IMG/VR virus record: IMGVR_UViG_3300020045_006153
Location: 115,550 to 179,549 of that record
Reading direction: 5' to 3' (one strand)
From: a virus
Taxonomy: Duplodnaviria; Heunggongvirae; Uroviricota; Caudoviricetes
DNA: 64,000 bases
The notes under the pieces: model-generated
The model's database searches: none
The model's input: the letters and a program-made list of their open reading frames with translations, nothing else
Told to the model about the DNA's origin: nothing
Position numbers and translations under genes: made by a program
Part shown: one piece after another, positions 3,255-19,118 of the stretch
Numbering within the stretch: position 1 is the stretch's first letter
Layout: every line of letters begins with the position of its first letter

Positions 3255-3314
3255 AGGATACATACAGCAAACTTAAAATTTTAATATGGTTTTAAAAGAC
3301 AAAAATGTATCCTG
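3255..3314 (+). ncRNA. CAGCAA-motif RNA copy 1
   Basis: AGGATAC-ATA-CAGCAA ... GTATCCTG with internal TTTTAA/TTAAAA hairpin. Confidence 0.7.
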
Positions 3315-3323
3315 TTATATTAT

Positions 3324-3409
3324 GGAGTATTATACCGTTAAGGAGACGGTCCGGCCTGTAAAGTCGGCGCATTATTGCTCTGTTGGATCGTTACCAACAT
3401 ACTCCACCA
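3324..3409 (+). tRNA. tRNA-Tyr(GTA)
   Basis: GGAGTAT/ATACTCC acceptor, loop CTGTAAA, long variable arm, ACCA. Confidence 0.88.
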
Positions 3410-3416
3410 AGTTTAT

Positions 3417-3494
3417 CTCTCATTAATGTCAATCTGGTAGACGGCCTGATCTGGAGTCAGGAGGCTGTACGTTCGAATCGTACATGGGAGACCA
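3417..3494 (+). tRNA. tRNA-Pro(TGG), C33 variant
   Basis: CCTGA-TCTGGAG-TCAGG anticodon arm, T-loop TTCGAAT, ACCA. Confidence 0.75.
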
Positions 3495-3503
3495 AGTTTT
3501 TAT

Positions 3504-3577
3504 GCATCGGTAGTTTAATGGCAGAACCGCGGTGTTACATACCGCTGATGGGAGTTCAATTCTCCAACGATGTACCA
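3504..3577 (+). tRNA. tRNA-Val(TAC)
   Basis: GCGGT-GTTACAT-ACCGC anticodon arm, ACCA. Confidence 0.8.
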
Positions 3578-3582
3578 GTTTT

Positions 3583-3638
3583 AGGATCAGTTCAGCAAAC
3601 TTAAAAATTCACTGTAAATGAAATCAAAGTTGATCCTG
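3583..3638 (+). ncRNA. CAGCAA-motif RNA copy 2 carrying Tyr-type anticodon stem-loop
   Basis: AGGATCA-GTT-CAGCAA ... TTCA-CTGTAAA-TGAA ... TGATCCTG. Confidence 0.75.
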
Positions 3639-3649
3639 TTATATTTTAA

Positions 3650-3723
3650 CTCCGTGTGGTGAAATGGTATCACTCTTGGTTTGGGACCAAGGAGCGTAGG
3701 TTCGATTCCTACTACGGAGACCA
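3650..3723 (+). tRNA. tRNA-Pro(TGG)
   Basis: Cloverleaf, loop TTTGGGA, ACCA. Confidence 0.92.
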
Positions 3724-3728
3724 CATTT

Positions 3729-3792
3729 AGGATGCTTCCAGCAAACTTCTAAAAAATCAAATTGAAACTTTGACACTAAGAAATGCATCCTG
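3729..3792 (+). ncRNA. CAGCAA-motif RNA copy 3 carrying Phe-type anticodon stem-loop
   Basis: AGGATGC-TTC-CAGCAA ... TCAAA-TTGAAAC-TTTGA ... GCATCCTG. Confidence 0.75.
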
Positions 3793-3803
3793 TTAGTTTT
3801 TAT

Positions 3804-3877
3804 TCGGGATTTGTGTAGTGGTAGCACAACAGACTTTGACTCTGTCGGTATAAGTTCGATTCTTATATCCCGTACCA
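3804..3877 (+). tRNA. tRNA-Gln(TTG)
   Basis: ACAGA-CTTTGAC-TCTGT, T-loop, ACCA. Confidence 0.88.
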
Positions 3878-3883
3878 ATATAT

Positions 3884-3958
3884 GCCATGGTAGGACTCTG
3901 GGAGTTTACCACACTGTCGATGTGATTTAGGCGGGTTCAATTCCCGTCCATGGCGCCA
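3884..3958 (+). tRNA. tRNA-Asp(GTC)
   Basis: GCCATGG/CCATGGC acceptor, loop CTGTCGA, GCCA. Confidence 0.82.
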
Positions 3959-4018
3959 AGTTTGAAGACGACAAGGTTACCTGCACCACAATGTCAAGCA
4001 GGACTTCAATTAGTTAAT

Positions 4019-4093
4019 GGGGGCAGCAGAGGGCTGCGGGTTTGCTTTGCAAGCATACTGACTAGAACGGTTCGATACCGTCGGCCTCCACCA
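4019..4093 (+). tRNA. tRNA-Ala(TGC)
   Basis: G3.U70, loop TTTGCAA, ACCA. Confidence 0.8.
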
Positions 4094-4099
4094 AAGTTA

Positions 4100-4157
4100 C
4101 GGGGCAACAAAGAGCAACTCTGTTAGAGTTCGTACAGCAAGTTAAAATGCCCCGCCA
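4100..4157 (+). ncRNA. Acceptor-minihelix RNA with permuted CAGCAA motif
   Basis: GGGGCA/TGCCCC-G-CCA enclosing AACTCTG-TT-AGAGTTC-GTA-CAGCAA. Confidence 0.65.
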
Positions 4158-4161
4158 ATAT

Positions 4162-4237
4162 GTCCCTGTCGTCTACCTGGTTAGGACGTCAGCCTTTCAA
4201 GTTGAAAAATCGGGTTCGAGACCCGATGGGGACGCCA
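4162..4237 (+). tRNA. tRNA-Glu(TTC)
   Basis: TCAGC-CTTTCAA-GTTGA, GCCA. Confidence 0.9.
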
Positions 4238-4243
4238 AGTTAT

Positions 4244-4338
4244 GGGGAAGATGCTCTAAGGTAGAGTAATATGCATTCTGCTTAGAATGTTTACTGCAAA
4301 AATCAAACTAATTGGTTCGATTCCAATCTTCTCCACCA
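4244..4338 (+). ncRNA. Anticodon-less tRNA-like RNA (Ala identity) with permuted motif in place of anticodon arm
   Basis: GGGGAAG/CTTCTCC (G3.U70, A73), D-arm, GCATTCTG-CTT-AGAATG-TTTA-CTGCAA, T-arm, CCA. Confidence 0.75.
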
Positions 4339-4343
4339 ATTAT

Positions 4344-4421
4344 GCGGGTATACAGTGCAAAGGGCGCACAGCAGATTTCCAATCTGAAGATCGCGGAGTT
4401 CGATTCTCCATACCCGCTCCA
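4344..4421 (+). tRNA. tRNA-Gly(TCC)
   Basis: GCGGGTA acceptor, loop TTTCCAA, TCCA. Confidence 0.88.
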
Positions 4422-4426
4422 ATTAT

Positions 4427-4490
4427 AGGATGCTTCCAGCAAACTTTATAAATTTCAAAACCATTATCTTTGAAAAGAAAAAGCATCCTG
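4427..4490 (+). ncRNA. CAGCAA-motif RNA copy 4
   Basis: AGGATGC-TTC-CAGCAA ... TTCAAA/TTTGAA hairpin ... GCATCCTG. Confidence 0.7.
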
Positions 4491-4499
4491 ATATTTTAT

Positions 4500-4577
4500 T
4501 CCGCAGAAGCCAAGTAAGGACAAGGCCGTGACTGTTAATCACTGTTTAAACTGGTTCGATTCCAGTGTGCGGAGCCA
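4500..4577 (+). tRNA. tRNA-Asn(GTT)
   Basis: GTGA-CTGTTAA-TCAC, GCCA. Confidence 0.85.
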
Positions 4578-4586
4578 AGTTAGTTA

Positions 4587-4662
4587 GGTCTCAAAGTGTT
4601 CATGGACGCACACGACACTGTCACTGTCGAAGAGTGGGGATCGTTACCCCCTGGGACCGCCA
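4587..4662 (+). tRNA. tRNA-Asp(GTC)
   Basis: CGACA-CTGTCAC-TGTCG, GCCA. Confidence 0.88.
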
Positions 4663-4669
4663 ATTTTAT

Positions 4670-4744
4670 GTCCCTTTAGTATAATGGATAATACACAACG
4701 CTACGAACGTTGGGATCCAGGTTCGATTCCTGGGAGGGGCTCCA
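4670..4744 (+). tRNA. tRNA-Arg(ACG)
   Basis: CAACG-CTACGAA-CGTTG, TCCA. Confidence 0.92.
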
Positions 4745-4748
4745 ACTT

Positions 4749-4822
4749 GCCTTTTTAGTTTAATGGTAGAGCACCGGTTTTGTATTCCGGGAATAGGGGT
4801 TCGATTCCTCTAAAAGGCACCA
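4749..4822 (+). tRNA. tRNA-Thr(TGT)
   Basis: GCCTTTT/AAAAGGC, loop TTTGTAT, ACCA. Confidence 0.88.
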
Positions 4823-4845
4823 TGTGTTAGTGAGACATCTTAGGT

Positions 4846-4918
4846 GTGGCCTTAGTGTAAAGGTTAAGCACCTCACTCTGTGAAAGTGATAGAATGGGAT
4901 CAATACCCATAGGTCACC
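4846..4918 (+). tRNA. tRNA-His(GTG), no encoded CCA, embedded in flanking stem
   Basis: TCACT-CTGTGAA-AGTGA; C73; flanked by ACATCTTAG/CTAAGATGT. Confidence 0.82.
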
Positions 4919-4934
4919 CCTAAGATGTTTATAT

Positions 4935-5008
4935 TCCCGGTTAATTAAATGGTATAATACTCGCCTGATAAGCGGAATTTACAAGTTCGATTCTTGTACT
5001 GGGAACCA
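4935..5008 (+). tRNA. tRNA-Ile(GAT)
   Basis: Loop CTGATAA, T-loop, ACCA. Confidence 0.85.
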
Positions 5009-5018
5009 TAAGTTTTAT

Positions 5019-5273
5019 TTCGTTATAGTGTAGAGGAAGGTAGAGTAGTATTGAGTAGGTGAGATAAGTCAGTTAGTAATTCAAAGTAGATAACAATCGC
5101 GTAGGCTTTAAAACCAAACACTGTGAGTCCGGGAAGTGCGGAACAGGTTGAAATGAATGAAGGGTGAGATAAGGCGCTGAGGGGATACGAGGGTAACTTT
5201 GGGAAACACACGGGGACCCAGCATACGCGATTTTAGCCCCGCATCGCAAGTTCGAGTCTTGCTGACGAAGCCA
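5019..5273 (+). ncRNA. 255-nt tRNA-like RNA (acceptor stem + T-arm + CCA, ~200-nt insert)
   Basis: TTCGTTA/TGACGAA-G-CCA; GCAAG-TTCGAGT-CTTGC; internal ATCGCGTA/TACGCGAT helix. Confidence 0.65.
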
Positions 5274-5279
5274 GTTTAT

Positions 5280-5373
5280 ATGTCTGTAGTTCAATGAGGT
5301 GCGCAAGTAATTCCTCGAAGTCAGAACGCCCTTGATCAGGGAGATGGAGGTTAGAGACCTTCTGGGCATGCCA
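5280..5373 (+). tRNA. Atypical tRNA with hairpin inserted in D-loop, 5-nt anticodon loop (TGATC)
   Basis: ATGTCTG/TGGGCAT-G-CCA; GTTC..GAAC D-stem enclosing GAGG..CCTC hairpin. Confidence 0.55.
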
Positions 5374-5378
5374 GTTTT

Positions 5379-5497
5379 AGGATGTTTACCGCAAACTTTA
5401 TCTTTATTCCAAACTAGTGGTCCGGTTCGATTCCGGCGTCCGATTCGGATGTGGTGTAATGGTAGCACACAAGTCCACAAGAGAAAACAGCATCCTG
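5379..5497 (+). ncRNA. Circularly permuted tRNA-Gly(TCC) bracketed by CAGCAA-type motif
   Basis: 3' half (nt33-73) 5407-5444 fused to 5' half (nt1-32) 5445-5475 inside AGGATG..CCGCAA / CATCCTG. Confidence 0.75.
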
Positions 5498-5506
5498 TTA
5501 TTTTAT

Positions 5507-5583
5507 GCCTTCGTACGCTAATTGGTAGTGCGGATAGTTTTAGAAACTGTTGGTTGGGGGTTCGAATCCGCCCGAAGGTACCA
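5507..5583 (+). tRNA. tRNA-Leu(TAG), short variable arm
   Basis: ATAGT-TTTAGAA-ACTGT, 5-nt variable loop, ACCA. Confidence 0.8.
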
Positions 5584-5590
5584 TAGTTAT

Positions 5591-5679
5591 TGGGGAGTGG
5601 TGAAATTGGTTAGCCACACTGGTCTTTGAAATCAGCGCCTGTAATGGGCATGTAGGTTCGACTCCTACCTCCTCAGCCA
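5591..5679 (+). tRNA. tRNA-Gln(TTG) with long variable arm
   Basis: U1-A72,G73; CTGGT-CTTTGAA-ATCAG; extra GCCT/GGGC arm. Confidence 0.8.
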
Positions 5680-5685
5680 AGTTAT

Positions 5686-5760
5686 ATCTTGTTAGTTTAA
5701 TGATTAGAACGCTAGCATTTTCGGCTAGTAATGCAGATTCGATCCTTGCACAAGATACCA
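5686..5760 (+). tRNA. Degenerate tRNA (anticodon TTT by position)
   Basis: CTAGC-ATTTTCG-GCTAG; imperfect T-arm; ACCA. Confidence 0.6.
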
Positions 5761-5865
5761 CAGAGTATAAGTAGTCCTAAGCAACCTGGACCCTGCTCAA
5801 ACGAACCAGCGTAACTGGGATGCGATACTTTCGCTTGAGAGGTTAGCCCTCACAGTAAGAATAAC

Positions 5866-5943
5866 GCCAGAGTAGCTCCAATTGCGTAGAGCAGCAGCCT
5901 GAAAAGTTGTGTGTTGTCGGTTCGAATCCGACCTTTGGTACCA
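5866..5943 (+). tRNA. tRNA-Phe(GAA)
   Basis: Loop CTGAAAA, ACCA. Confidence 0.9.
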
Positions 5944-5949
5944 TTTTAT

Positions 5950-6035
5950 GGATAGTTGTGCGCTGGCCGCAAGTTGGTTTGCTAAACCGATCCACTGCTA
6001 ACGCGGTGACAGTTCGATTCTGTATCTATCCTCCA
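5950..6035 (+). tRNA. tRNA-Ser(GCT)
   Basis: Loop TTGCTAA, long variable arm. Confidence 0.85.
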
Positions 6036-6042
6036 AGTTTAT

Positions 6043-6118
6043 GCACCTTTAGCTGATGTGGTCATAGTGGCGGTCTGAAGATCCGTTGAAGTTGGTTCGA
6101 TTCCAACAGGGTGCACCA
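6043..6118 (+). tRNA. tRNA-Phe(GAA)
   Basis: Loop CTGAAGA, ACCA. Confidence 0.85.
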
Positions 6119-6128
6119 AGTTAGTATT

Positions 6129-6202
6129 GCTCTTATCGTTAAATGGTAGGACACCTCTTTGGTAAGGAGGGAATAGAAGTTCGATTCTTCTTGAGAGCAC
6201 CA
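6129..6202 (+). tRNA. tRNA-Thr(GGT)
   Basis: CCTCT-TTGGTAA-GGAGG, ACCA. Confidence 0.9.
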
Positions 6203-6209
6203 AATTTAT

Positions 6210-6298
6210 GGGCTGGCGCCGTGGGACACGGCCGAAGTTGCAGTGATGTGACATGCGGAAAAGCGCTGAGAAGGTTCAACTCCTTTCCTAGTCCACCA
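6210..6298 (+). ncRNA. Aberrant tRNA-like RNA with Ala identity
   Basis: GGGCTGG/CTAGTCC (G3.U70) A73 CCA, T-loop TTCAACT, no canonical anticodon arm. Confidence 0.55.
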
Positions 6299-6300
6299 GA

Positions 6301-6476
6301 TTTTTGAGATAGACGAGGGAGTTATAGCATTGCCTAACAATGCTGAGTCGTAAGTAGCGGTGAATGTAGCAGGTCTAGTGCTACATTGACGGGTTTAACG
6401 TGAAAGAAACAAGATCTCCTCCCATCGAGACAACCCGTTGAGTCCCTTCAATAAGGATAGGCGGCCTCTCAAAAAA
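6301..6476 (+). ncRNA. Multi-helix structured RNA of unknown class
   Basis: TTTTTGAGA/TCTCAAAAA closing stem, hairpins AGCATTG/CAATGCT, AATGTAGCA/TGCTACATT, ACGGGTT/AACCCGT. Confidence 0.5.
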
Positions 6477-6675
6477 CTATTTGGGGTGAATGGTTAGAAG
6501 CGGGTTCGATTCCCGTATAGTCCACCATAAAGTATATCGCCTAGTCGACGAGGGTCAGGTCGTGCTTACTATAAGAAAGTAAGTTTTCCTGGCAGGTATA
6601 CTTCATAATGGGCTAGGTTGGATCCGCCTCCTAGGGGCATTGCAGGGTTCGATTCCCGCGCACTCCACCAAATAT

Positions 6676-6762
6676 GGATTATAGATGTGCTGGGCACTAA
6701 GCGGCTTCGAATACCGTTCCACTTAGAAATAGGTGATAGTTCGATTCTATTATAATCCGCCA
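6676..6762 (+). tRNA. tRNA-Ser(CGA)
   Basis: GGATTAT acceptor, loop TTCGAAT, long variable arm, GCCA. Confidence 0.75.
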
Positions 6763-6777
6763 ATAAATAAAGAATAT

Positions 6778-6867
6778 GGAGTGTAGAGTTCATGGTGAGC
6801 AAGCAGCCTTGAAAACTGTTCCACTGGTTAGTAGCCGGTGATGGTTCGATTCCATTACACTCCGCCA
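6778..6867 (+). tRNA. tRNA-Ser(TGA)
   Basis: Loop CTTGAAA, long variable arm, GCCA. Confidence 0.85.
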
Positions 6868-6873
6868 AAATAT

Positions 6874-6960
6874 GGAAGATAGAAGTGCTGGGCACTAAGC
6901 AACTTGGAAAGTTGTTCCACTGTGAAAACGGTGACAGTTCGATTCTGTTATCTTCCTCCA
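6874..6960 (+). tRNA. tRNA-Ser(GGA)
   Basis: GCAAC-TTGGAAA-GTTGT, long variable arm. Confidence 0.85.
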
Positions 6961-6966
6961 AATTAT

Positions 6967-7044
6967 AGTGCGGTGCCCGAGTGGTCCAAGGGAACTGATT
7001 GCAAACCAGTAAAACCGTGAGTTCAAATCTCACCCGCACTTCCA
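6967..7044 (+). tRNA. tRNA-Cys(GCA)
   Basis: Loop TTGCAAA, U73, CCA. Confidence 0.9.
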
Positions 7045-7049
7045 AATAT

Positions 7050-7125
7050 ACGTCGTTCTTCTAACTGGCAAGATAACGGACTCCAAATTCGTTTAATATA
7101 GGTTCGAATCCTATGCGGCGTGCCA
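7050..7125 (+). tRNA. tRNA-Trp(CCA)
   Basis: Loop CTCCAAA, GCCA. Confidence 0.88.
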
Positions 7126-7135
7126 ACATAAATAC

Positions 7136-7720
7136 GTGATGAGAATAACTGAACTTTTTGAATCACGTAGTGCTGATTTGTATCACGGTACAAATCTGTT
7201 AAAATTAAATAACATATTGCAAAGAAATATGTTTAAAGCAAGTGCATCTGTCCGCAGCGATATTGTACCGCATACGTTTAAAGGACATAGTAGAACTGTT
7301 TCTTTTTCTAGAGATCCGAATATGTCAGTTAACTTTGCTCGTTCTAAAGCAGGCGGGGAAGAAGGCATTAACGGTATACCAGTTGTCATTGTTGTGGATC
7401 AAAATAAATTATATCAAACTGTAGGTAGAAGAATGCAGGCATATAATGATCTTGCATTAACACATAATGGAACAGAAAGATCAAATGGCGGTAGTGAGTC
7501 TGAGGAAGTTGTTTTTGGAGACATAAATGATGCTAATGCTTTTATTAAAAAGATTATCATTCATATGCCCAAAAATGCAGGTAAAGACTTAACAAGTGCA
7601 TTGGCTAAATGCACTAATATCTTAGGTGATCCGCGTACTGTGATAGTAGATTTTCTAAATAAACCACTATCGGGTAAAGAATTCATCAATATAGCAAATA
7701 ATAATGTATCTCTAGTGTAA
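7136..7720 (+). CDS. ADP-ribosyltransferase-fold protein, putative virion-packaged
   Basis: LYHGT, VSFSRD, ESEEVV motifs; N-term MRITELFES; CATAAATA upstream. Confidence 0.6.
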   Translation: MMRITELFESRSADLYHGTNLLKLNNILQRNMFKASASVRSDIVPHTFKGHSRTVSFSRDPNMSVNFARSKAGGEEGINGIPVVIVVDQNKLYQTVGRRMQAYNDLALTHNGTERSNGGSESEEVVFGDINDANAFIKKIIIHMPKNAGKDLTSALAKCTNILGDPRTVIVDFLNKPLSGKEFINIANNNVSLV

Positions 7721-7779
7721 TGGCAGCATTCCGGTCTCCAAAACCGTCAGTCAAGGTTCGAGTCCTTGGAGGTACGCCA
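7706..7779 (+). tRNA. tRNA-Trp(CCA), overlapping upstream ORF end
   Basis: Loop CTCCAAA, T-loop TTCGAGT, GCCA. Confidence 0.9.
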
Positions 7780-7790
7780 TAAATATTGTT

Positions 7791-8327
7791 ATGAAATCTT
7801 TAAGACATTATATTAATTTAGTAGAGCAATCAGAGGATGACTACGTATATCACGGTGGATCATATGCAGGCGGAGAATATAATCCTAGCAAGGTGGGTGA
7901 ACCAGGTAATATTCGCCCACTAGGTGTAGGTATATATGCAGCCAAAACTCCTGAACATGCACAACTATATGTGAAATATGCAGGATCTAATGGTGCTGTT
8001 AAAAAATTTAAAGTTTCAAAAACTGCTAAATTATATCCATGGGGCGCTGATGCATGGAGTAAATTAACTCCTGCCGAAGCGGCACAATGGAGAGCAAAGT
8101 CTGCAGAAATTCAAACTGCATTTGAAAAAGCAAATTTAGTTAAATTTAATACTTTTAGAAAACAGTATAATCATTGGCAAGATGCAGTATCAGGATTTGG
8201 TGCATTTGATAAAGAACAAATGAGAAAGATTTTAGTATCAGTTGGAGTCGATGGCGCTAAACAAATTCTTAGCGACGACATGACTGAATTAGTGTTTTAT
8301 AACACTTCAGTGTTAACTCCGGTATAA
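7791..8327 (+). CDS. ADP-ribosyltransferase-fold protein (ART-PolyVal-like)
   Basis: VYHG, LGVGIYAA..A..Y, GVDG, ELVFY motifs; N-term MKSLRHYINLVE. Confidence 0.6.
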   Translation: MKSLRHYINLVEQSEDDYVYHGGSYAGGEYNPSKVGEPGNIRPLGVGIYAAKTPEHAQLYVKYAGSNGAVKKFKVSKTAKLYPWGADAWSKLTPAEAAQWRAKSAEIQTAFEKANLVKFNTFRKQYNHWQDAVSGFGAFDKEQMRKILVSVGVDGAKQILSDDMTELVFYNTSVLTPV

Positions 8328-8328
8328 T

Positions 8329-9057
8329 ATGAAAATCACAGAACTCATAACAGAACGCAGACAACAAAATATATCAGTTGTGTATCACGGTACATCTTCT
8401 AATTTTGTTAGATCTATTTTAAAAACAGGATTAAGTCCAGTGCCTCCAAAACGGTCGTGGGGTGATAGTGATAAGATGGGTGCTGATAAAGAAAGCCTTC
8501 CTGGAATATACTTAACTCCACGATTAGATTATGCTCAAACCGCAGCCAAACAGTCAGTGGAACTTAATGGCGGAACTCCGACTCTTATTACTGTACAATA
8601 CGTATCAGGAAGCGGAGGATTAGATGAAGATAATATCACTGGTATTGTGTGTTACGCTGTTTCAGAAGATTACGATGCATTTATAAAAGATTTTGATCAT
8701 CAATTTTTAGATATAATTAGTCGAGTTAAGGATCGATTAAAGAATACAGCATTGAATAATCGAAGTATTGAAATACTAAAACAATTAGTAAAAGTTGCGG
8801 TTAATATTACTTCAAAAAATTACGAAGAAGTTCAAGGAACTGAATTTCGATCAATATTATCTAATCCGCAGTTTAGACAATTACTGATAAAATTTACAGA
8901 ATCTGTTAAAGTTCACTCATCGGAAAATCCAGATTGGACTTCGGAACACATAAAAGTAACACGCATAATTGGTTTCAGCGGTAAGACGAAAATAGTTAAA
9001 ATCGAAGATTTAAAAACAAAAGCAGTGTACTATGAAAAGCATGAAGTCAGCCGCTAA
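8329..9057 (+). CDS. ART-fold protein, Tpt1/KptA-like first strand
   Basis: VYHGTSSNFVRSILKTGLSP, GIYLT..DYA; N-term MKITELITE. Confidence 0.6.
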   Translation: MKITELITERRQQNISVVYHGTSSNFVRSILKTGLSPVPPKRSWGDSDKMGADKESLPGIYLTPRLDYAQTAAKQSVELNGGTPTLITVQYVSGSGGLDEDNITGIVCYAVSEDYDAFIKDFDHQFLDIISRVKDRLKNTALNNRSIEILKQLVKVAVNITSKNYEEVQGTEFRSILSNPQFRQLLIKFTESVKVHSSENPDWTSEHIKVTRIIGFSGKTKIVKIEDLKTKAVYYEKHEVSR

Positions 9058-9226
9058 TTTTAAATTACGTGGAAAATTAAGAATGATGTGTCAATGTGGT
9101 TGTTGTGAAGTTTATAACCCTACATGGACAGAACGGTTAAAAGAAGCAAAGAAAGAAGTTGACAACTACTGTAACACGTTGTATAATAAACAAGAAGGAA
9201 AAGGCAATGAAGGCGAATTATCGTAA
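9032..9226 (+). CDS. Hypothetical protein (CxCGCC)
   Basis: ORF track, overlaps previous stop. Confidence 0.5.
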   Translation: MKSMKSAANFKLRGKLRMMCQCGCCEVYNPTWTERLKEAKKEVDNYCNTLYNKQEGKGNEGELS

Positions 9227-11336: not shown

Positions 11337-11456
11337 GCAGACCTAGCTTAATGGTAGAGCACGTAGAAAGCGATCCTGATAAGGATACAATACAGCACTA
11401 CAAATCATTCCACTCACTAGGACGGGATCGTGGTTCGAATCCACGGGTCTGCACCA
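11337..11456 (+). ncRNA. tRNA body with permuted CAGCA motif inserted in anticodon arm
   Basis: GCAGACC/GGTCTGC-ACCA, D- and T-arms intact; ATCCTG-ATA-AGGATAC-AATA-CAGCAC insert. Confidence 0.75.
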
Positions 11457-13170: not shown

Positions 13171-13202
13171 AAGCAAGAGTAATTAACTTGCACCATTTAC
13201 GG

Positions 13203-13281
13203 GAGTCATGACCCGTAGGACTCGCGTAGTGTAATGGTTAGCACAGCAAAAATCTTTAGGTTCGATTCCTAAGCCTGGCCA
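13203..13281 (+). ncRNA. Scrambled tRNA/CAGCAA-motif hybrid
   Basis: GAGTCATG..AGGACTC, D-arm GTGTAATGGTTAGCAC, CAGCAAAAATC, T-arm, CCA; no anticodon arm. Confidence 0.45.
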
Positions 13282-13344
13282 ATATACAGGACGGTGTGTG
13301 ATGAGTAGCAAATGATGGTTCGAATCCATCCGCAATGAGTCTGC

Positions 13345-13448
13345 ATATTAAAGTAAACTAAGGTTACGCAGGAACCCTGCCACAGTAGATATACTGTGAA
13401 AGTTCAAGTAAATAAGATTCACCTAACGGGTACAGTTTATTTTAATAT
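13345..13448 (+). ncRNA. Long-stem cassette RNA 3
   Basis: 15-bp IR ATATTAAAGTAAACT / AGTTTATTTTAATAT. Confidence 0.5.
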
Positions 13449-13562
13449 GGTATGAGAGCCTTGCAACCGGCCCAAGTGTCTTGTATTGTTGTGGAGATAA
13501 AATACTTGAACGACCTAAGAGGGGCAGTGTCCACTACTCGTAATTTTGCTCATATCATAAAT

Positions 13563-13639
13563 GCGGATGTAACCGAATTGGTATAGGTACTGGTCTAAGA
13601 AGCCAGGTTTTGAGAGTTCGAGTCTCTCCATCCGCACCA
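13563..13639 (+). tRNA. tRNA-Leu(AAG), A34, short variable arm
   Basis: CTGGT-CTAAGAA-GCCAG, ACCA. Confidence 0.85.
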
Positions 13640-13673
13640 TATACCATAATTATTTTTAACACAAGGAAATGAA

Positions 13674-13901
13674 ATGACACTAGCACTTTGCTCGCAAAAA
13701 GCAGCCGAAATGGTTGGAAACAAGTTTGATCTGGTACTTATTGCCAGTGCACGAGCACGTGAATTGAAGCGTGGATACAAGGCATTAGTTCCTAATCCAA
13801 CTGGTCCTATTGTTACTGCGCTTCGTGAAATTGAAGAAGGCTTTGTTGGCCGTGAATATTTGAAGAAGAAGGTTGCACAGTCGCAATCGAATCGCAGATA
13901 A
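13674..13901 (+). CDS. rpoZ: RNA polymerase omega subunit
   Basis: GNKFDLVLIASARAREL..G..LV....IVTALREIEEG matches omega consensus; AGGAAA SD. Confidence 0.9.
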   Translation: MTLALCSQKAAEMVGNKFDLVLIASARARELKRGYKALVPNPTGPIVTALREIEEGFVGREYLKKKVAQSQSNRR

Positions 13902-14003
13902 CAGTTCTTGCAAGAAGTACAGGGGTACGGTGATCCAACGAAGCGGGGATTATAAAAGCCGATAAGTGCCCGGGGTAAAACTCCATACGCTTTCCCAACA
14001 TAT

Positions 14004-14093
14004 GCAAGCGAGACTTGGAGTCCGAGGAGTCTTATAAGCTCTTTCCGCCAGATTAGCGGCTTTGAGAGAGTTCGATTCTCTCCGCTTGTACCA
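14004..14093 (+). tRNA. tRNA with TAT (Ile) anticodon and long variable arm
   Basis: GGAGT-CTTATAA-GCTCT; CCGC/GCGG extra arm; short D-arm; ACCA. Confidence 0.75.
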
Positions 14094-14177
14094 AAATTTA
14101 ACAACAGCGTTTTATTGGAAATTCGATTCGTTTACGAATCTAACAGAATCCCGGCTACGGGATGTTAAATACTGCAT

Positions 14178-14252
14178 CTGGCGTTCGTATAATGGATAAT
14201 ACAGGGGATTTCTACTCCCTAAATAGGGGTTCGATTCCTCTACGCCGGACCA
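14178..14252 (+). tRNA. tRNA-Arg(TCT)
   Basis: GGGGA-TTTCTAC-TCCCT, ACCA. Confidence 0.9.
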
Positions 14253-14270
14253 CATATGTATAAATATTGA

Positions 14271-14744
14271 ATGCGAATTAACGAAGTTATAATAAAACCT
14301 GCTCCCACTATTGAACAAGTTATTGAGGCTATGGGTGCTTGGTTTGAAATGTGGCAAGCATCGAAACAAGTTCCGATCATTTTAGCATCGCCTGCGGCTG
14401 CAAAGTTCAAGCATGTTGAAGGGAATACATTATTTCGATGCGTAGTCCTTACTAAAACTGGAAATTTTAAAGCACCGAAAACTACTTCGTTGATTGCAAC
14501 ATATACCACTGATATTAATGCTGCTCATAAATTTTACAATAGTTTATATATTGATAATCCATATGTAATTGTACAGAAAAAACTTAATCCCGCCGATGTG
14601 GCATTAAATTTCACAGCATTTGCTAATAGTTTAGGTCAAAGTGGAGGATGGGATGAAAAAGAAATCTGGATGAAGGCTACTCCTTATTACAAAGATATAA
14701 ATCCCGAAGAAATAGTTTTTGATTCGAGATCAGATCATAGTTAA
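14271..14744 (+). CDS. ART-fold protein (R-S-E type), late promoter
   Basis: TLFRCV, ATYTTDINAAHKF, DEKEIW motifs; TATAAATA at 14259; N-term MRINEVII. Confidence 0.55.
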   Translation: MRINEVIIKPAPTIEQVIEAMGAWFEMWQASKQVPIILASPAAAKFKHVEGNTLFRCVVLTKTGNFKAPKTTSLIATYTTDINAAHKFYNSLYIDNPYVIVQKKLNPADVALNFTAFANSLGQSGGWDEKEIWMKATPYYKDINPEEIVFDSRSDHS

Positions 14745-14772
14745 ACATATTATTGATAGTGTGTTTAACTAT

Positions 14773-14875
14773 GGTGCGTGAGGTACGCAGGACGTCAACG
14801 TGTATATCCTAAGACATAGACAAAATATTGTGGCCACAATATGCGACTAGTTTTAGGTTAACTCATGCACCGCCA
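14773..14875 (+). ncRNA. CCA-ended rod-like RNA
   Basis: GGTGCGTGAG/CTCATGCACC-G-CCA; internal ATATTGTGG/CCACAATAT. Confidence 0.5.
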
Positions 14876-15187
14876 AATTTAATGTTAGATGAGTTAGTAA
14901 CCGAGACACCTCGTCGTTGTCCTAAACCATATAATGGTGAGTAAAGGCTGCTGGAAAACCGATAAATTCCTTCTCAGGATTTGCAGCGACAGACATTAAT
15001 TGAATTATAGTTATAACTATCTGAGGACTCAACGAAAGTGTAGTCGCTGCATAGTACGCCTTAACTATATAAGGGCAACGTGAAGGCCCTTGTTATTAGT
15101 AGTATCGCGAGGGGTTCCTGGCGATACGAACAAACTAAAGGAGCGCCGGATCTCCACAACTCTTTGACAATTATCAGACTAAATTGT

Positions 15188-15260
15188 CACTATATTGAAG
15201 CATTGGGTTCATTGCCCTCAGCGCGAAGACTAGAAAGTACTAGTATGCTTCAATATAGTG
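15188..15260 (+). ncRNA. Long-stem cassette RNA 4
   Basis: 16-bp perfect IR CACTATATTGAAGCAT / ATGCTTCAATATAGTG. Confidence 0.5.
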
Positions 15261-15421
15261 TGTTATGCGTCTGAAATGAAATCCCTTCGAAAAGGATTGA
15301 CAGTAGGATAAGAAAAGCAACGTGAAGATCGAAGATACCTGCCTCTGAAGCAGACGTATTCGAAAGGCTAACGTAAGTATATTGCAATGAAAGCGTTAGA
15401 GGCTTATAACAGACTAGTTTT

Positions 15422-15498
15422 GGTGCGGTAGTATTATTGGCAATACGCTATCCTCATAAGGTAGAATGAAGGGAGTTCGAATCTCCCCCGCACCACCA
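15422..15498 (+). tRNA. tRNA-Met(CAT)
   Basis: CTATC-CTCATAA-GGTAG, ACCA. Confidence 0.88.
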
Positions 15499-15632
15499 TA
15501 TATTAAAACACATTGCCCTACCCAAGGGGTAGCAGACAGTGGTTGGAAGGATCTGCTCGTTGCTGATCGCGTTGGATGCACTCGGGTTGCACCGATGCCA
15601 ACAGATAGTGATTGCAGTGTGTTTCAATATAT
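15498..15632 (+). ncRNA. Long-stem cassette RNA 5
   Basis: IR ATATATTAAAACACATTGC / GCAGTGTGTTTCAATATAT. Confidence 0.5.
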
Positions 15633-15709
15633 GCCCATTTACGCTAATTGGAAGTGCGGATTCTCTCAAAAGGAGTTGGCTCTCGGTTCGAATCCGAGAA
15701 TGGGTACCA
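15633..15709 (+). tRNA. tRNA-Leu(CAA), short variable arm
   Basis: Loop CTCAAAA, paralog of 5507 tRNA, ACCA. Confidence 0.82.
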
Positions 15710-15837
15710 AGTTTAAGCAGAGCCTGACTGAAACGGGCATGAGATGTGGTAATACAAGGCCGAAAGCACAAGGGTTCAATTCCCTAGCGTCTTATTTCAG
15801 TCTGCTTAATTAATTTTCACAATGTTGCATATAGTAG

Positions 15838-16009
15838 TTGACAAAGTGTTAAATAGACAGTATAATTAATACATACACTAAGCAGTTAGTGTATAAAATA
15901 TATGTGTTGAGCAATTGCCCACTGTTTTGTGGGATGAAGGTAATAAGAAAACTATTGGATACGTTCATTAGTAGAAATATCTTTAACACATATCGCTCAT
16001 TAAAAATTT
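15838..16009 (+). promoter_or_regulatory. sigma70 promoter with downstream boxA-like site
   Basis: TTGACA(15838)-17-TATAAT; CGCTCATTAAAAATTT at 15994. Confidence 0.65.
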
Positions 16010-16301
16010 AACGTATAAGAGTTCTTATACACATACGCACAACGAAGTTTGATCGGTAGCAAGGTGCATCAAACAACCTATGTCTACAGTGCGTATATGT
16101 ATAGTAATTTTTATACACATGCACATAAATGCACAGTACATGCAGATATAGATGGACATTAGCCCGGCATACAGTTGGGTAGGCAGGTTCGATTCCTGTG
16201 AATGTGCAGTTGTATAAGAATTACACTTAGCCTGGATATAGTTTAGGTATTAAGGTAGGGACACCTCCGTCGTGAAACGTCCTAAGTGTAGTAAGTATAA
16301 T

Positions 16302-16376
16302 GGGGGATTGGCGTAATTGGGAACGCAGTAGCTTTGCAAGCTTCAGTCAGGAGTTCGAATCTCCTATCCTCCACCA
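16302..16376 (+). tRNA. tRNA-Ala(TGC)
   Basis: G3.U70, loop TTTGCAA, ACCA. Confidence 0.92.
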
Positions 16377-16382
16377 ATTTAG

Positions 16383-16518
16383 TTGTTTTATAAAAGCAAT
16401 CTTAGACGGATAGAATCCTGCAATAATAACAGGGTGTCTCTTCGGTTCCTGGTAGGGCGAACGGTGGTTATGTGCCAGCATGTACTGCTTATATCTTAGT
16501 GCGCTTTTATAAAACAAT
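16383..16518 (+). ncRNA. Long-stem cassette RNA 6
   Basis: 15-bp perfect IR TTGTTTTATAAAAGC / GCTTTTATAAAACAA. Confidence 0.5.
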
Positions 16519-16522
16519 TTAT

Positions 16523-16596
16523 TGCGGGTAGGGCAGTCACCACACCGGTCTCATAAGCCAGGTGCATCGGCCGTGCGAATCGGTCACCCGCATCCA
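16523..16596 (+). tRNA. tRNA with CAT anticodon (Met or Ile2)
   Basis: TGCGGGT/ACCCGCA, loop CTCATAA. Confidence 0.78.
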
Positions 16597-16776
16597 AATA
16601 CGCGCAGAGTGATGCTCTGCTAGGAGTGAAACAATTGTCGGTGTAACCTCTGCGTAAGATTACTTAACGGTGCTTACCCATGTTACAGGACTTCTTCGAA
16701 TGTAACTACTAATCCTAGAGAAATGTTTCAGATGCGAAGGCACAATCAGGTGGAAAGCCTGTTCAAATTGTTAGTT

Positions 16777-16861
16777 GCCCTGGTGGCGAAATTGGTAGAC
16801 GCACCAGATTTAGGTTCTGGCGCCGCAAGGCGTGGGGGTTCGAGTCCCCCCTAGGGCACCA
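16777..16861 (+). tRNA. tRNA-Leu(TAG), canonical long arm
   Basis: Loop TTTAGGT, GCC-GCAA-GGC arm, ACCA. Confidence 0.95.
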
Positions 16862-16871
16862 AAAGATAGAA

Positions 16872-16961
16872 GGAACGGTCCCATAATGGTATTGGAGAAG
16901 ATTGCTAATCTTTCGATCGTAGTAATACGGTTTCTGAGTTCGAGTCTCAGTCGTTCCGCCA
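16872..16961 (+). tRNA. tRNA-Ser(GCT)
   Basis: Loop TTGCTAA, long arm, GCCA. Confidence 0.92.
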
Positions 16962-16968
16962 TAGTTAT

Positions 16969-17130
16969 GTTGCGAGTTTAGTCGAGTGCGCTATCTATAG
17001 TAACGCACAAAGGTAGGTACCTAAAGACTATCCATTAATTTGAAAATATTATGTAGTAACAGTAGGTTGACTAGTTAAAACTTTCTGCGGGGCATAATAA
17101 CCCAAGGTTCGATTCCCGGGCGCAACTCCA
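16969..17130 (+). ncRNA. 162-nt tRNA-like RNA (acceptor + T-loop + CCA, large insert)
   Basis: GTTGCG/CGCAAC-T-CCA; GG-TTCGATT-CC. Confidence 0.5.
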
Positions 17131-17152
17131 AATTTAGTTTATTTTAAGGAAA

Positions 17153-17356
17153 ATGATGTATATTAAACCAACGAAGACATTCGTGTTAAGCAAGCGTTCA
17201 AAGACAATCGGTGCATTGTCGAAATTCAGAAGTGAAGACTTGCGTCATGACTTCAAGAACGCGATGATTCAAGCAGAACTTGCTTCGGCAATTCGTCCTG
17301 CGAATAAGAAGACACGTGATGTGAATAATATGCCTGTGGCTGACACAGAGGCATAA
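17153..17356 (+). CDS. Small basic hypothetical protein
   Basis: AAGGAA SD, ORF track. Confidence 0.6.
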   Translation: MMYIKPTKTFVLSKRSKTIGALSKFRSEDLRHDFKNAMIQAELASAIRPANKKTRDVNNMPVADTEA

Positions 17357-17367
17357 GTAAAGTATAT

Positions 17368-17442
17368 TCCACAGTAGCACAGCGGTAGTGCAGGAGACTG
17401 TTAATCTCTTGGTCGTTGGTTCGATCCCAGCCTGTGGAGCCA
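17368..17442 (+). tRNA. tRNA-Asn(GTT)
   Basis: GGAGA-CTGTTAA-TCTCT, GCCA. Confidence 0.93.
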
Positions 17443-17447
17443 AATTT

Positions 17448-17503
17448 AGAATGCGTTCTGCAACCAAAACAATTCAACTTTTAATTGAAAAATAAGCATT
17501 CTG
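17448..17503 (+). ncRNA. CTGCAA-motif RNA copy carrying Lys-type anticodon stem-loop
   Basis: AGAATGC-GTT-CTGCAA ... TTCAA-CTTTTAA-TTGAA ... GCATTCTG. Confidence 0.75.
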
Positions 17504-17513
17504 TTAGTTATTA

Positions 17514-17588
17514 GCCCGATTAGCGTAGTGGTAGCGCAATCGCCTTGTAAGCGATAGGTCGTCTGTTCGAACCAGACATTGGGCACCA
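17514..17588 (+). tRNA. tRNA-Thr(TGT)
   Basis: ATCGC-CTTGTAA-GCGAT, ACCA. Confidence 0.93.
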
Positions 17589-17593
17589 GTTTT

Positions 17594-17717
17594 AGGATAG
17601 GTACAGCAACCCATAAATCAATATGGAATGTTACGTGATACCCCGAAAGGGATTCTAGTAAATAGAGGAGTTTCGACAGTTCTTCTCGATAAACTCAAAA
17701 AGTAGACAACTATCCTG
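17594..17717 (+). ncRNA. CAGCAA-motif RNA copy with long multi-hairpin insert
   Basis: AGGATAG-GTA-CAGCAA ... CTATCCTG. Confidence 0.7.
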
Positions 17718-17725
17718 GTATTTTT

Positions 17726-17799
17726 GCGGGGTTCGTATAGTGGCAATACCTCAGTTTTCCAAACTGAAGCGAGGAGTTCGATTCTCCTACCCCGCTCCA
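17726..17799 (+). tRNA. tRNA-Gly(TCC)
   Basis: TCAGT-TTTCCAA-ACTGA, TCCA. Confidence 0.92.
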
Positions 17800-17810
17800 C
17801 TTATAATGTT

Positions 17811-18044
17811 ATGAATTTAACTGAACAACTTATTGAAATTGCTCGTGAGATTGAAAGCGAAGACCCGATTGATTGGGGAATGCTTGAAATCGATGAGTAT
17901 ACAGCATATGAACTAATGGCAGGAAGTATCCTTGAGAATTATCTCGCAACTGATGCAGATAGTAGGGATATGGTGTTATTAGCCACTGTATTAAAGTTGA
18001 CAGTAGAGAATTTTGTGTTAAACTTAAAGTTAATGCAGAAATAG
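17811..18044 (+). CDS. Acidic hypothetical protein
   Basis: In-frame ATG after tRNA. Confidence 0.6.
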   Translation: MNLTEQLIEIAREIESEDPIDWGMLEIDEYTAYELMAGSILENYLATDADSRDMVLLATVLKLTVENFVLNLKLMQK

Positions 18045-18050
18045 AATAAT

Positions 18051-18126
18051 AGGAACTTAACTCAGTTGGTAGAGTTTCTGCCTTACACGCAGACTGTCAT
18101 CGGTTCGAACCCGGTAGTTCCTACCA
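18051..18126 (+). tRNA. tRNA-Val(TAC)
   Basis: TCTGC-CTTACAC-GCAGA, ACCA. Confidence 0.93.
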
Positions 18127-18401
18127 AAGTTTTGCTAGTTAATAAACTAGCCGGTATTTGTATAGAGATGAGTGATTGCAACAATCTAATTATGCCTGAA
18201 CAGCATTATTGGAAACTTATATTTGTTCCAGTGATCCAAGATCATATTGCTTAATTGCATTGTTTATTGTTCCTTGGAAATATTGGTAACCTTTGTTTTT
18301 TGTTTGAGAATAGACCTCATGTATATTGCAAGTTGCATTTTGTCCCGCAATTAACTTGCTATACATTTACTGTAATAATTTAAATAGATAGAAAGAAGAA
18401 G

Positions 18402-18968
18402 ATGAAATTTACACTACGCAAGGCAAATGCTTTGCAAACAGCAATTCAAGAGCAAATTAAAGCGATCGAAGTTACAACTGATGTTTCGTTGAACGAATTT
18501 CAGTCTTCGGAATCCGCAATTCAAGTTGCACGTGATAAACTTGTAACCAATGACCTTAAACGTGCTCAATTGACCAAGACATTGTACGGTATTCGTGCAC
18601 AAATTGGTCGTGCAAACGTTGAGAGTGGTGTAAGTGACCTGCTTGCTGATGCTGCATACGTTGATAAGCGTATCAGTCACGTAAAAACTTTGTCTGAAAG
18701 CAAAGTAGTCGACGCATCTGAAGTAATTGTTGGCAAGTTAGAGAAACTTCGTACTGCTGATTCTGCAAGAAGTGCATACGGTTACAGCCAAACGGTCGAT
18801 ACTGGTGTGCTAACGGCGGAACAAATTGAGGATTACAAGTCAGAAATGCGTGAACTTAAGAAACGCAAGCAAAATATTAACGATAAGGTGCTAGAACTAA
18901 ATGTTCGCACTGAGATCGAACTAGATGATAGCACGGTAACACTGTTACAAGCGGAACAACTAGTTTAA
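18402..18968 (+). CDS. Coiled-coil hypothetical protein
   Basis: 188-aa ORF, heptad pattern. Confidence 0.7.
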   Translation: MKFTLRKANALQTAIQEQIKAIEVTTDVSLNEFQSSESAIQVARDKLVTNDLKRAQLTKTLYGIRAQIGRANVESGVSDLLADAAYVDKRISHVKTLSESKVVDASEVIVGKLEKLRTADSARSAYGYSQTVDTGVLTAEQIEDYKSEMRELKKRKQNINDKVLELNVRTEIELDDSTVTLLQAEQLV

Positions 18969-19066
18969 TTAGTAAGATACGCGGGCTGACCACAAGGACA
19001 CGTGTCAAGGTAAGGTATCTGAGGAGTAAGTAACAGGTTTGGTCATACTTACTCGCAAATAGTTTT

Positions 19067-19118
19067 AGGATTCATTCAGCAACTTAAATACTTTCATATG
19101 TAATAAAAGCGAATCCTG
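19067..19118 (+). ncRNA. CAGCAA-motif RNA copy (loop contains TT-CAT-AT)
   Basis: AGGATTC-ATT-CAGCAA ... GAATCCTG. Confidence 0.7.

Follow-up and report, generated by a model that had tools for sequence, protein, structure and literature searches.

The window analysed here comprises 64,000 nucleotides (nt) of a Caudoviricetes virus record (IMGVR_UViG_3300020045_006153). It corresponds to bases 115550–179549 of that record, which is 353 kb long, 99% complete and has a G+C content of 38%. The window carries 45 tRNA genes recognised by ARAGORN, 44 of which are located on the plus strand between 3.0 and 19.8 kb. Within this array, tRNA slots are occupied by a repeated RNA element, hereafter called the handle, which consists of a covarying stem of 7 base pairs (bp) termed P1, three bases, the sequence CAGCAA, an A-rich return strand and a 3' G. 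A preliminary description of the sequence had claimed at least 11 copies, and a strict pattern search indeed returns 11, all on the plus strand at window positions 3255–19117, inside the tRNA array; on the minus strand, the same pattern gives one unrelated chance match. In open (linear) copies, the handle holds a variable interior, the cargo, whereas in closed (permuted) copies P1 is itself a hairpin within an acceptor stem or a tRNA body. The copies are as follows, with scores on the Rfam family RF01414 (Dictyostelium Class I RNA) given where noted.

3255..3314, plus strand: open short handle RNA; P1 AGGATAC/GTATCCT, then ATA-CAGCAA; 84 bits; AU-rich interior without a clear anticodon-like hairpin; RF01414 30.9 bits, below threshold
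3583..3638, plus strand: open short handle RNA; interior hairpin TTCA-CTGTAAA-TGAA, like the Tyr (GUA) anticodon loop
3729..3792, plus strand: open short handle RNA; interior hairpin TCAAA-TTGAAAC-TTTGA, like the Phe (GAA) anticodon loop
4427..4490, plus strand: open short handle RNA; P1 as in the copy at 3729; 9-nt interior loop; RF01414 25.4 bits
5379..5497, plus strand: open long handle RNA; cargo a tRNA body in permuted order (T-arm, head-to-tail fused acceptor strands, then D-arm), to which the handle is joined at the anticodon-loop end
17448..17503, plus strand: open short handle RNA; interior TTCAA-CTTTTAA-TTGAA, the canonical Lys (UUU) anticodon loop; 66.8 bits; RF01414 31.5 bits, aligned over the full length
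17594..17717, plus strand: open long handle RNA; 100-nt cargo with three hairpins, not tRNA-like
19067..19118, plus strand: open short handle RNA; P1 AGGATTC/GAATCCT; RF01414 29 bits
4100..4157 (copy 4116–4140), plus strand: closed form; 7-bp acceptor-like stem ending in CCA, which encloses the A-rich strand, the P1 hairpin 4116–4130 (GTT loop), CGTA and CAGCAA 4135–4140; homologous arrangement at L032:2349
4244..4338 (copy 4274–4299), plus strand: closed form; tRNA-like body with acceptor, D-arm, T-arm and CCA, the anticodon arm being replaced by the P1 hairpin 4274–4289, TTTA and CTGCAA 4294–4299; weak Rfam match to the tRNA-like domain of transfer-messenger RNA (tmRNA); homologue at L105:10661
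11337..11456 (copy 11372–11398), plus strand: closed form; otherwise complete tRNA (Rfam tRNA 45.4 bits) whose anticodon stem is interrupted in its 5' strand by a 45-nt insert, 11365–11409 (A-rich strand, then P1 hairpin, AATA-CAGCAC and tail); without the insert, stem CGTCC/GGACG and an 8-nt loop; homologues at L138:7783, L138:7914 and L010:3412

A pairing script that delimits the helix in both forms found a 7-bp helix followed by G in each of the eight open copies, at the positions already proposed for them, and the helix pairs listed in the preliminary description are all correct. The permuted copies with a loop of 3–4 nt were confirmed at 4100, 4244 and 11337. A possible fourth one at 13203 was not confirmed: its CAGCAA overlaps the D-arm, a closing stem is not seen, and the general covariance model R2 finds no match. 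Another CAGCAA occurs near 12935. In the surrounding segment, 12895–12960, a terminator hairpin precedes a promoter close to consensus (TTGACA, 17 nt, TACAAT), and ATACATACAGCAAGC comes next. The CAGCAA here may belong to a minimal or degenerate handle where the transcript starts; it has no R2 match.

Two covariance models were used in addition to the strict pattern. Model R1 was built from the six short copies of the window, which score 51–84 bits (E 1e-10 to 1e-13) with models R1 and R2. As R1 was too narrow and missed Felix O1-like copies with the stem AGACCNN, the general model R2 was built from 38 diverse copies aligned with MAFFT. Closed copies, for which no model was made, come from the pairing script alone, and their count is therefore a lower bound.

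The element is not confined to this genome. In IMG/VR, a 14-base pattern matched more than 119 contigs, many of them with several copies, and R1 detected 118 copies in other viral contigs (58 loci) at E <0.01, all counts out of 118 below referring to this set. P1 is 99.6% paired in these copies, with six of the seven pairs changing on both sides, and none of 500 shuffles reaches the observed score. The two inner positions of P1 accommodate every Watson–Crick pair, and G:C at the second position never changes. When 38 diverse copies were aligned independently with MAFFT, P1 came out as 100% paired, with six of seven pairs covarying. Beyond the stem, no variation is seen at C15, G17, C18 and A19 of CAGCAA or at the G that follows P1, and a U directly precedes CAGCAA in 89 copies (75%). 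The refined consensus reads UUUU-A-G-R-N-U-N-N / N-U-W / CAGCAA / interior / A-rich / N-N-A-N-Y-C-U / G-U-U. Handle RNAs are a real, widespread family of small RNAs, and the conserved module of covarying helix and CAGCAA that had been recognised in the window stands.

Two other readings of the flanks were rejected. The first was a leader–trailer helix formed by pairing across a tRNA; however, the variable pairs differ between neighbouring copies, so the helix forms within each element. The second was an extended −10 promoter (TG-n-TATATT) in the 3' flank. Its key −11 base is A in 53% and G in 25% of the 118 copies, and the promoter reading is also contradicted by the closed copies, which hold the UG within the hairpin loop.

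At gathering scores, Rfam yields only tRNAs, and the handle RNAs match none of its families, which agrees with the earlier impression that the motif has no Rfam name. A Megablast comparison of the tRNA array with cultured phages returned a tRNA of RsoM2USA as its only match, and the papers that were searched do not describe a CAGCAA handle RNA family. A ribozyme was one of three functions initially envisaged, and the circularly permuted helices, typical of small ribozymes, as well as the position directly after tRNA 3' ends would suit a self-cleaving one that cuts the tRNA precursor. It can nevertheless hardly be entertained. No Rfam ribozyme family matches positions 2900–20000 at E up to 5, the conserved core amounts to only about eight unpaired bases next to one helix, the interior is freely replaceable, and the same element is found in a translated mRNA leader. 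The features of the motif are those of a binding site.

The spacing between handles and tRNAs that had been noticed in the window holds generally. Measured against the 915 tRNA genes in the 58 R1 loci, 64 of the 118 copies start 4–11 nt after a tRNA (63 at 4–8 nt), and 61 end at most 15 nt before the next one, 54 of those at 9–12 nt. The constant spacing and the AU-rich flanks would be expected of a processing or stability element that guides RNase E or RNase P, or protects the spacer RNA, in a polycistronic tRNA transcript. Such a role is highly improbable, since the element is missing from most tRNA–tRNA junctions of the same array and is also found in mRNA leaders and, behind sigma-70-type promoters of its own, apart from tRNAs. 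Neither the conservation of CAGCAA nor the mimicry of anticodon loops described next would be explained.

About 90% of the copies are short or have non-tRNA cargo, the short form holding a hairpin of about 17 nt. A perfect 5-bp stem with a 7-nt loop is present in 68 of 107 distinct short-copy interiors (about 10 in shuffled interiors), and 45 of those 68 bear the anticodon-loop signature Y32-U33...A37 (0.7 in shuffles). The anticodon-like triplets are varied, with UUU being the commonest. The stems of these hairpins covary but are AU-only, unlike the real tRNA stems of the phage. Neither ARAGORN nor the Rfam tRNA model calls the short copies, which have no cloverleaf, no open acceptor with CCA, no D-arm and no T-arm. 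Long open copies comprise whole tRNA bodies in the order anticodon arm, T-arm, capped acceptor (7–8 bp) and D-arm; in an alternative long form, the handle takes the place of the acceptor stem. The tRNA-like domain of T-arm, capped acceptor and D-arm occurs in the window copy at 5379, in L022, L024, L085 and L076, and in mycobacteriophage Whirlwind. The long copy of L076 has its own sigma-70-type promoters.

The idea that the module is physically interchanged with tRNA anticodon arms is thus only partly borne out. The module is combined with tRNA parts, but it does not simply replace arms: several tRNAs have an intact anticodon stem with the module as an extra arm in its 5' strand, and the cargo of most open copies is itself an anticodon-arm mimic.

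This mimicry raises the possibility that handle RNAs are stand-alone decoys, i.e. non-chargeable tRNA mimics that soak up anticodon nucleases or tRNA-targeting defences, with the handle as a mere clamp and no partner protein involved. The anticodon-loop signature in most short copies, with its varied triplets, points in this direction, as do the capped acceptors, which prevent charging, and the RNA-repair genes close by. The same applies to the mini-hairpin at 17448–17503, which shows the canonical bacterial loop CUUUUAA, whereas the phage's tRNA-Lys(UUU) at 5686–5760 has the unusual loop AUUUUCG. A decoy function alone is still very unlikely. A passive clamp would not require a single-stranded CAGCAA and a 3' G to stay unchanged in phages whose hosts range from Gram-negative and Gram-positive bacteria to mycobacteria, the AU-only hairpin stems do not resemble real tRNA stems, and copies without tRNA-like cargo would remain unexplained, as would the association with a particular protein gene.

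This gene was found by clustering the open reading frames (ORFs) of the motif loci. The commonest neighbour family, present in 25 of 60 loci, encodes a protein of about 470 amino acids with the domains DUF2828 and DUF7788. In 24 of the 25 loci, a handle lies less than 100 nt upstream of the gene, a linkage resembling that of Y RNAs. It ends 13–43 nt before the start codon (21 cases at 13–30 nt) or, once, 90 nt before it. The leader handle is mostly located at the ribosome-binding site, and a second handle often follows 80–150 nt further upstream. The P1 sequences of leader copies vary between lineages, while CAGCAA is kept. Among the genes with a leader handle is that of the cultured Synechococcus phage BUCT-ZZ01. 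In the genome to which the window belongs, the gene is located about 12 kb upstream of the window, and a minimal handle ends at its Shine–Dalgarno sequence.

The DUF2828+DUF7788 protein matches PF11443 and PF25043 and, weakly, VWA_2. A sequence search of the PDB with this protein gave no match, and relatives were found only by fold. An AlphaFold model derived from 22 homologues has a predicted local distance difference test (pLDDT) score of 81 and a predicted template modelling (pTM) score of 0.74. With this model, the top 13 PDB matches in Foldseek are all Ro60/TROVE proteins, aligned over the full length (about 500 columns) with E values of 4e-9 to 5e-4, and include Ro60 of Thermus phage phiLo, Xenopus and human Ro60, and Rsr of Deinococcus. 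The five best Swiss-Prot fold matches are likewise Ro60. The motif DVSGSM, which represents the metal-ion-dependent adhesion site (MIDAS) of the von Willebrand factor A (vWA) domain, is invariant in the 22 sequences. The Foldseek matches, DVSGSM and the VWA_2 match together indicate a helical-repeat ring with a C-terminal vWA domain and MIDAS, as in Ro60-type proteins, and the DUF2828+DUF7788 protein is best read as a divergent Ro60 paralogue. Some GenBank records already name it "Ro-like RNA binding protein". It is present in 710 records of cultured phages with many hosts, and the DUF2828 family also occurs in eukaryotes.

The joint occurrence of protein and handle RNAs was investigated in 20 complete genomes of cultured phages, which were searched with R2 and in which presence of the protein was determined by PF25043 or tblastn. 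Handle RNAs were found in 14 of 15 protein-positive phages, namely BUCT-ZZ01, RSP15, LPCS28, Munch, phi-pp2, CL1 (Felix O1-like), PX29, Campylobacter phage NCTC12673, mycobacteriophage Whirlwind, Bacillus phage Tsamsa, Listeria phage LP-124, Staphylococcus phage SEP9, Aeromonas phage LAh_9 and Serratia phage BF. Four of the five protein-negative phages (RsoM2USA, Phosso, T4 and T5) have no R2 match. In 10 of the 14 handle-positive phages, a copy is situated at most 2 kb from the protein gene. Whirlwind has three tandem copies after the gene; the second of these contains a tRNA body similar to that of YrlA, and the last has an anticodon-like hairpin.

In Aeromonas phage LAh_9 (L157:322-1459), nine tandem handle RNAs fill 1.1 kb before the Ro60-like gene. 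The last of them overlaps the annotated start of the gene, which may have been called too far upstream.

Taken together, the structure and covariation of the handle, the tRNA mimicry of its cargo, its linkage to the DUF2828+DUF7788 gene, the fold likeness of the encoded protein and the co-occurrence of both, all of which are established by computation, probably find their explanation in a Y-RNA-like system. The repeats would be small non-coding RNAs whose handle serves as the docking site of a phage Ro60-like ring protein and whose cargo consists of tRNA pieces. P1, the single-stranded CAGCAA, the A-rich strand and the 3' G would be recognised by the ring protein, i.e. the DUF2828 helical domain with the vWA domain containing DVSGSM. 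Open handles hold an anticodon-stem-loop mimic, a whole tRNA body whose acceptor is capped, or some other hairpin, and closed ones form an extra arm on a real tRNA. Since handle RNAs occupy tRNA slots of the operon, processing of the neighbouring tRNAs would free them as tRNA-sized molecules. The leader handle at the ribosome-binding site suggests that the protein probably represses its own translation. By analogy with Ro60 and its Y RNAs, the particle would show tRNA-like surfaces to tRNA-recognising enzymes or nucleases during infection or, alternatively, would tether an exoribonuclease or a repair enzyme. We infer all four of these, i.e. binding, autoregulation, release by tRNA processing and biological role. 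The altered loop of the phage's tRNA-Lys, compared with the canonical Lys loop on the handle RNA at 17448–17503, agrees with the proposed role without proving it. Among the three functions originally suggested, the protein-binding scaffold is the one favoured by the leader copy of the Ro60-like gene and by co-occurrence.

Several observations weigh against this explanation. Most copies in this genome are 15–31 kb away from the protein gene, and one copy abuts it. The similarity of the fold to Ro60 is moderate, with template modelling (TM) scores of 0.55–0.57, and the Pfam TROVE model (PF05731) matches nothing in the phage genome, including the DUF2828+DUF7788 protein. At the position equivalent to the conserved motif of YrlA RNAs, GNCGAA(N)G, the handle has CAGCAA, and homology therefore does not establish the mode of binding. 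Acinetobacter phage ME3 possesses the protein but has no R2 match, and RaK2, which lacks the protein, has one borderline R2 match (E 0.007). The co-occurrence sample is small, protein similarity guided the choice of its positives, and related phages do not count as independent observations; co-occurrence is supporting evidence, not proof. Finally, docking to a protein alone leaves the handles that interrupt functional-looking tRNAs unexplained.

The comparison with known Y RNAs shows both likeness and difference. The ends of Y RNAs pair in a stem, a short conserved motif follows the 5' strand, and the bacterial ones adjoin rsr and mimic tRNA (PMC4201824). Like YrlA (RF02553; PMC4201824), handle RNAs form a terminal stem whose 5' strand is closely followed by a short conserved motif, and they adjoin the gene of a ring-plus-vWA protein, often in several copies per locus. 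The T-arm, capped acceptor and D-arm of YrlA are found in the long forms but not in about 90% of the copies, which are short; most handle RNAs have about 60 nt and only an anticodon-arm mimic. The partner of the handle is a DUF2828/DUF7788 protein, undetected by Pfam TROVE. Moreover, handle copies are scattered in tRNA operons, occur in the closed form as an extra tRNA arm and are present in the mRNA leader of the protein. None reaches the YrlA gathering score of 69 bits, the best being 48.9 (the long copy of L076) and 38.3 (Whirlwind), and the window has no YrlA match at E up to 5.

The Ro60 protein of Thermus phage phiLo binds two Y-like RNAs encoded just upstream of its gene and assembles with the host polynucleotide phosphorylase (PMC12135203). 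The phiLo system of Ro60, Yrl1 and Yrl2 (PMC12135203; PDB 9KOP, 9L5Y) provides the best structural match of the predicted protein, and there, too, the phage encodes a ring protein whose gene directly follows two Y-like RNAs. In contrast to the protein described here, phiLo Ro60 is a recognisable Ro60 homologue. Its RNAs are picked by a CGAA motif, and neither embedding in a tRNA array nor insertion into tRNAs has been reported for phiLo.

A third case is Listeria phage CKA15. Its protein CKA15_055, whose best HHpred match is Rsr, was found in virions, and three abundant non-coding transcripts come from the 2 kb that precede the gene; the authors suggested that these might be Y RNAs (PMC12282133). 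CKA15_055 is homologous to the DUF2828+DUF7788 protein, and R2 places two handles in an unannotated gap (25403-25556) directly upstream of the gene, which may correspond to the authors' other two transcribed regions. The authors raised the possibility only and defined no motif or structure. One of the three transcribed regions is a ROOL-like RNA, as judged from the homologous locus of Listeria phage LP-124.

In LP-124 itself, about 1 kb separates the ROOL-like RNA (L154:87-523; 84 bits, gathering score 99) from the handles and the Ro60-like gene downstream of it, and this RNA probably corresponds to the most transcribed non-coding region of CKA15.

Directly after the tRNA array, the window encodes a cluster for the healing and sealing of RNA ends (25602..30273):

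25602-26078, plus strand: DSP phosphatase, end-healing/sealing cluster just after the array
26586-27647, plus strand: RNA ligase (PF09414 and OB domain)
28166-28711, plus strand: metallophosphoesterase
29737-30273, plus strand: Rnl1-like ligase

The phosphoesterase family is present in 25 of the 60 motif loci and the phosphatase family in 16. These adjacent RNA ligase, phosphoesterase and phosphatase genes fit the role proposed for the Ro60-like particle, without proving it. Within 29737-30647, the Rnl1-like match covers an ORF of 178 amino acids, part of which is shared, in a different frame, with a second ORF (30183-30647); the ligase gene may be split or frameshifted.

The repair genes and the closed copies also bear on a different role, a splicing or circularisation handle that is cut on both sides by an endonuclease and whose flanks are resealed by an RNA ligase of the phage. 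In this scenario, each closed copy would act as a tRNA intron removed by proteins, and a permuted tRNA body inside an open copy would become a circle that is reopened at the acceptor, as with the bulge–helix–bulge elements of archaea and red algae. The closed copies fall into three kinds: an acceptor stem with CCA, a tRNA body without anticodon arm, and a complete tRNA with an insert. Compared with a canonical tRNA, the closed forms at 11337 and 4244 keep acceptor, D-arm, T-arm and CCA. Removal of the insert restores a 5-bp anticodon stem in five closed-form tRNAs, four homologues then having a 7-nt loop (CAU, GUU, GUC and GUG), and one tRNA-Asn homologue that lacks the insert aligns across the insert junction. 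The open long forms contain complete permuted tRNA bodies with capped acceptors of 7–8 bp, two RNA ligases, a phosphoesterase and a phosphatase are encoded directly after the array, and the YrlA RNA of M. smegmatis is an in vivo substrate of RNase P to which CCA is added (PMC4201824).

As an account of the whole family, splicing is nonetheless unlikely. For the roughly 90% of copies that carry a 17-nt hairpin or non-tRNA cargo, the product of excision would be useless, and some closed forms retain no anticodon arm or no tRNA body. The distance between handle and junction varies (7–14 nt and 7–12 nt), as does the insertion site (26/27, 27/28, 29/30 and 32/33). In the phage genome, neither an EndA-type endonuclease (PF01974) nor RtcB was found, and an RRM domain, which was also looked for, is absent. 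The archaeal and Cyanidioschyzon systems of bulge–helix–bulge tRNA introns and permuted tRNAs are similar in that inserts occupy non-canonical positions in tRNA stems, tRNA bodies are permuted, and one structural element serves both arrangements. However, the bulge–helix–bulge geometry, with two 3-nt bulges and a 4-bp helix between them, was not seen by eye in five closed forms, no formal search having been made, and most copies hold no tRNA to mature. A splicing or ligation handle, as initially proposed, is conceivable for the minority in which a real tRNA is interrupted or permuted, but not for the majority, which carry only a hairpin. For that minority, splicing could coexist with Ro-like binding.

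A further parallel is provided by the Class I RNAs of Dictyostelium (RF01414; PMC7919456). Their hallmarks are a 5' G, a short covarying stem, an 11-nt motif with near-invariant U3, C6, C9, A10 and A11, and a CUGU at the 3' end (PMC7919456). The handle matches these features: G6 and the C, C, A and A of CAGCAA are invariant, and C-U-G-U follows the stem in 111 of the 118 copies. Both kinds of RNA have about 60 nt, a short covarying terminal stem and a variable AU-rich interior, with an invariant 5' G that pairs with the C of the 3' CUGU and (U)UACAGCAA adjoining the 5' strand. The Rfam model aligns to phage copies of two unrelated lineages, in full length to four copies of the window (25.4–31.5 bits) and three of LAh_9 (25.7–29.6 bits). 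All handle scores are nevertheless below the gathering score of 41.5, and the spacer of the handle is one base shorter. Handle RNAs lack the DUSE promoter, which lies about 60 nt upstream in Class I, and are instead found in phage tRNA operons or behind sigma-70-type promoters. The binder known in amoebae is Rnp1A, an RRM protein, and Class I RNAs have been reported as unique to dictyostelids. It is a tentative and rather doubtful proposition that the handle is an ancient cross-domain element for a DUF2828-type Ro60 paralogue, that Class I RNAs are its eukaryotic Y-like members, and that the RNA ligases encoded nearby use the ring to mature or repair the handle-bearing and permuted tRNAs of phages. 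As a hypothesis for the Class I RNAs of social amoebae, it is at least concrete.

The DUF2828+DUF7788 family spans Felix O1-like, KVP40-like, Listeria P100-like, Campylobacter, Staphylococcus, Bacillus and mycobacterial phages and has thousands of metagenomic relatives; so far, it has had no assigned function, and its RNAs have not been annotated. The CAGCAA handle supplies a sequence rule for locating the putative partner RNAs, a candidate autoregulatory site, and model phages for what may be a second branch of Ro60/Y-RNA systems. Its cargoes, which comprise anticodon arms, capped tRNA bodies and tRNAs with a fifth arm, would link the particle with the surveillance or repair of tRNAs or with the evasion of defences during infection. 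The rule also accounts for many puzzling gaps in phage tRNA arrays and for tRNA genes that are missed by gene finders.

Some further observations concern the tRNA arrays. In BUCT-ZZ01, the handle/tRNA region contains an amber-suppressor-type tRNA with the anticodon CUA (L138:794-869) and a phage tmRNA (1916-2334). In the window, additional tRNA-like genes are located at 3410-3503, 3960-4093, 4346-4416, 4500-4586, 12990-13061 and 9503-9571; some of them, missed by ARAGORN, score 27–42 bits on the Rfam tRNA model, so the array is larger than the 45 genes called. After tRNA-Ile, a segment of about 270 nt (5009-5278) starts like the 5' part of a tRNA and ends with a T-arm, an acceptor strand and CCA. 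Rfam shows no intron or other family within this segment, which may represent a tRNA interrupted by about 200 nt. Two long structured stretches, 16962-17125 and 19205-19545, also end with a T-arm, an acceptor strand and CCA, the latter with a weak match to the tRNA-like domain of tmRNA, and both may be tRNA-like 3' domains on large RNAs.

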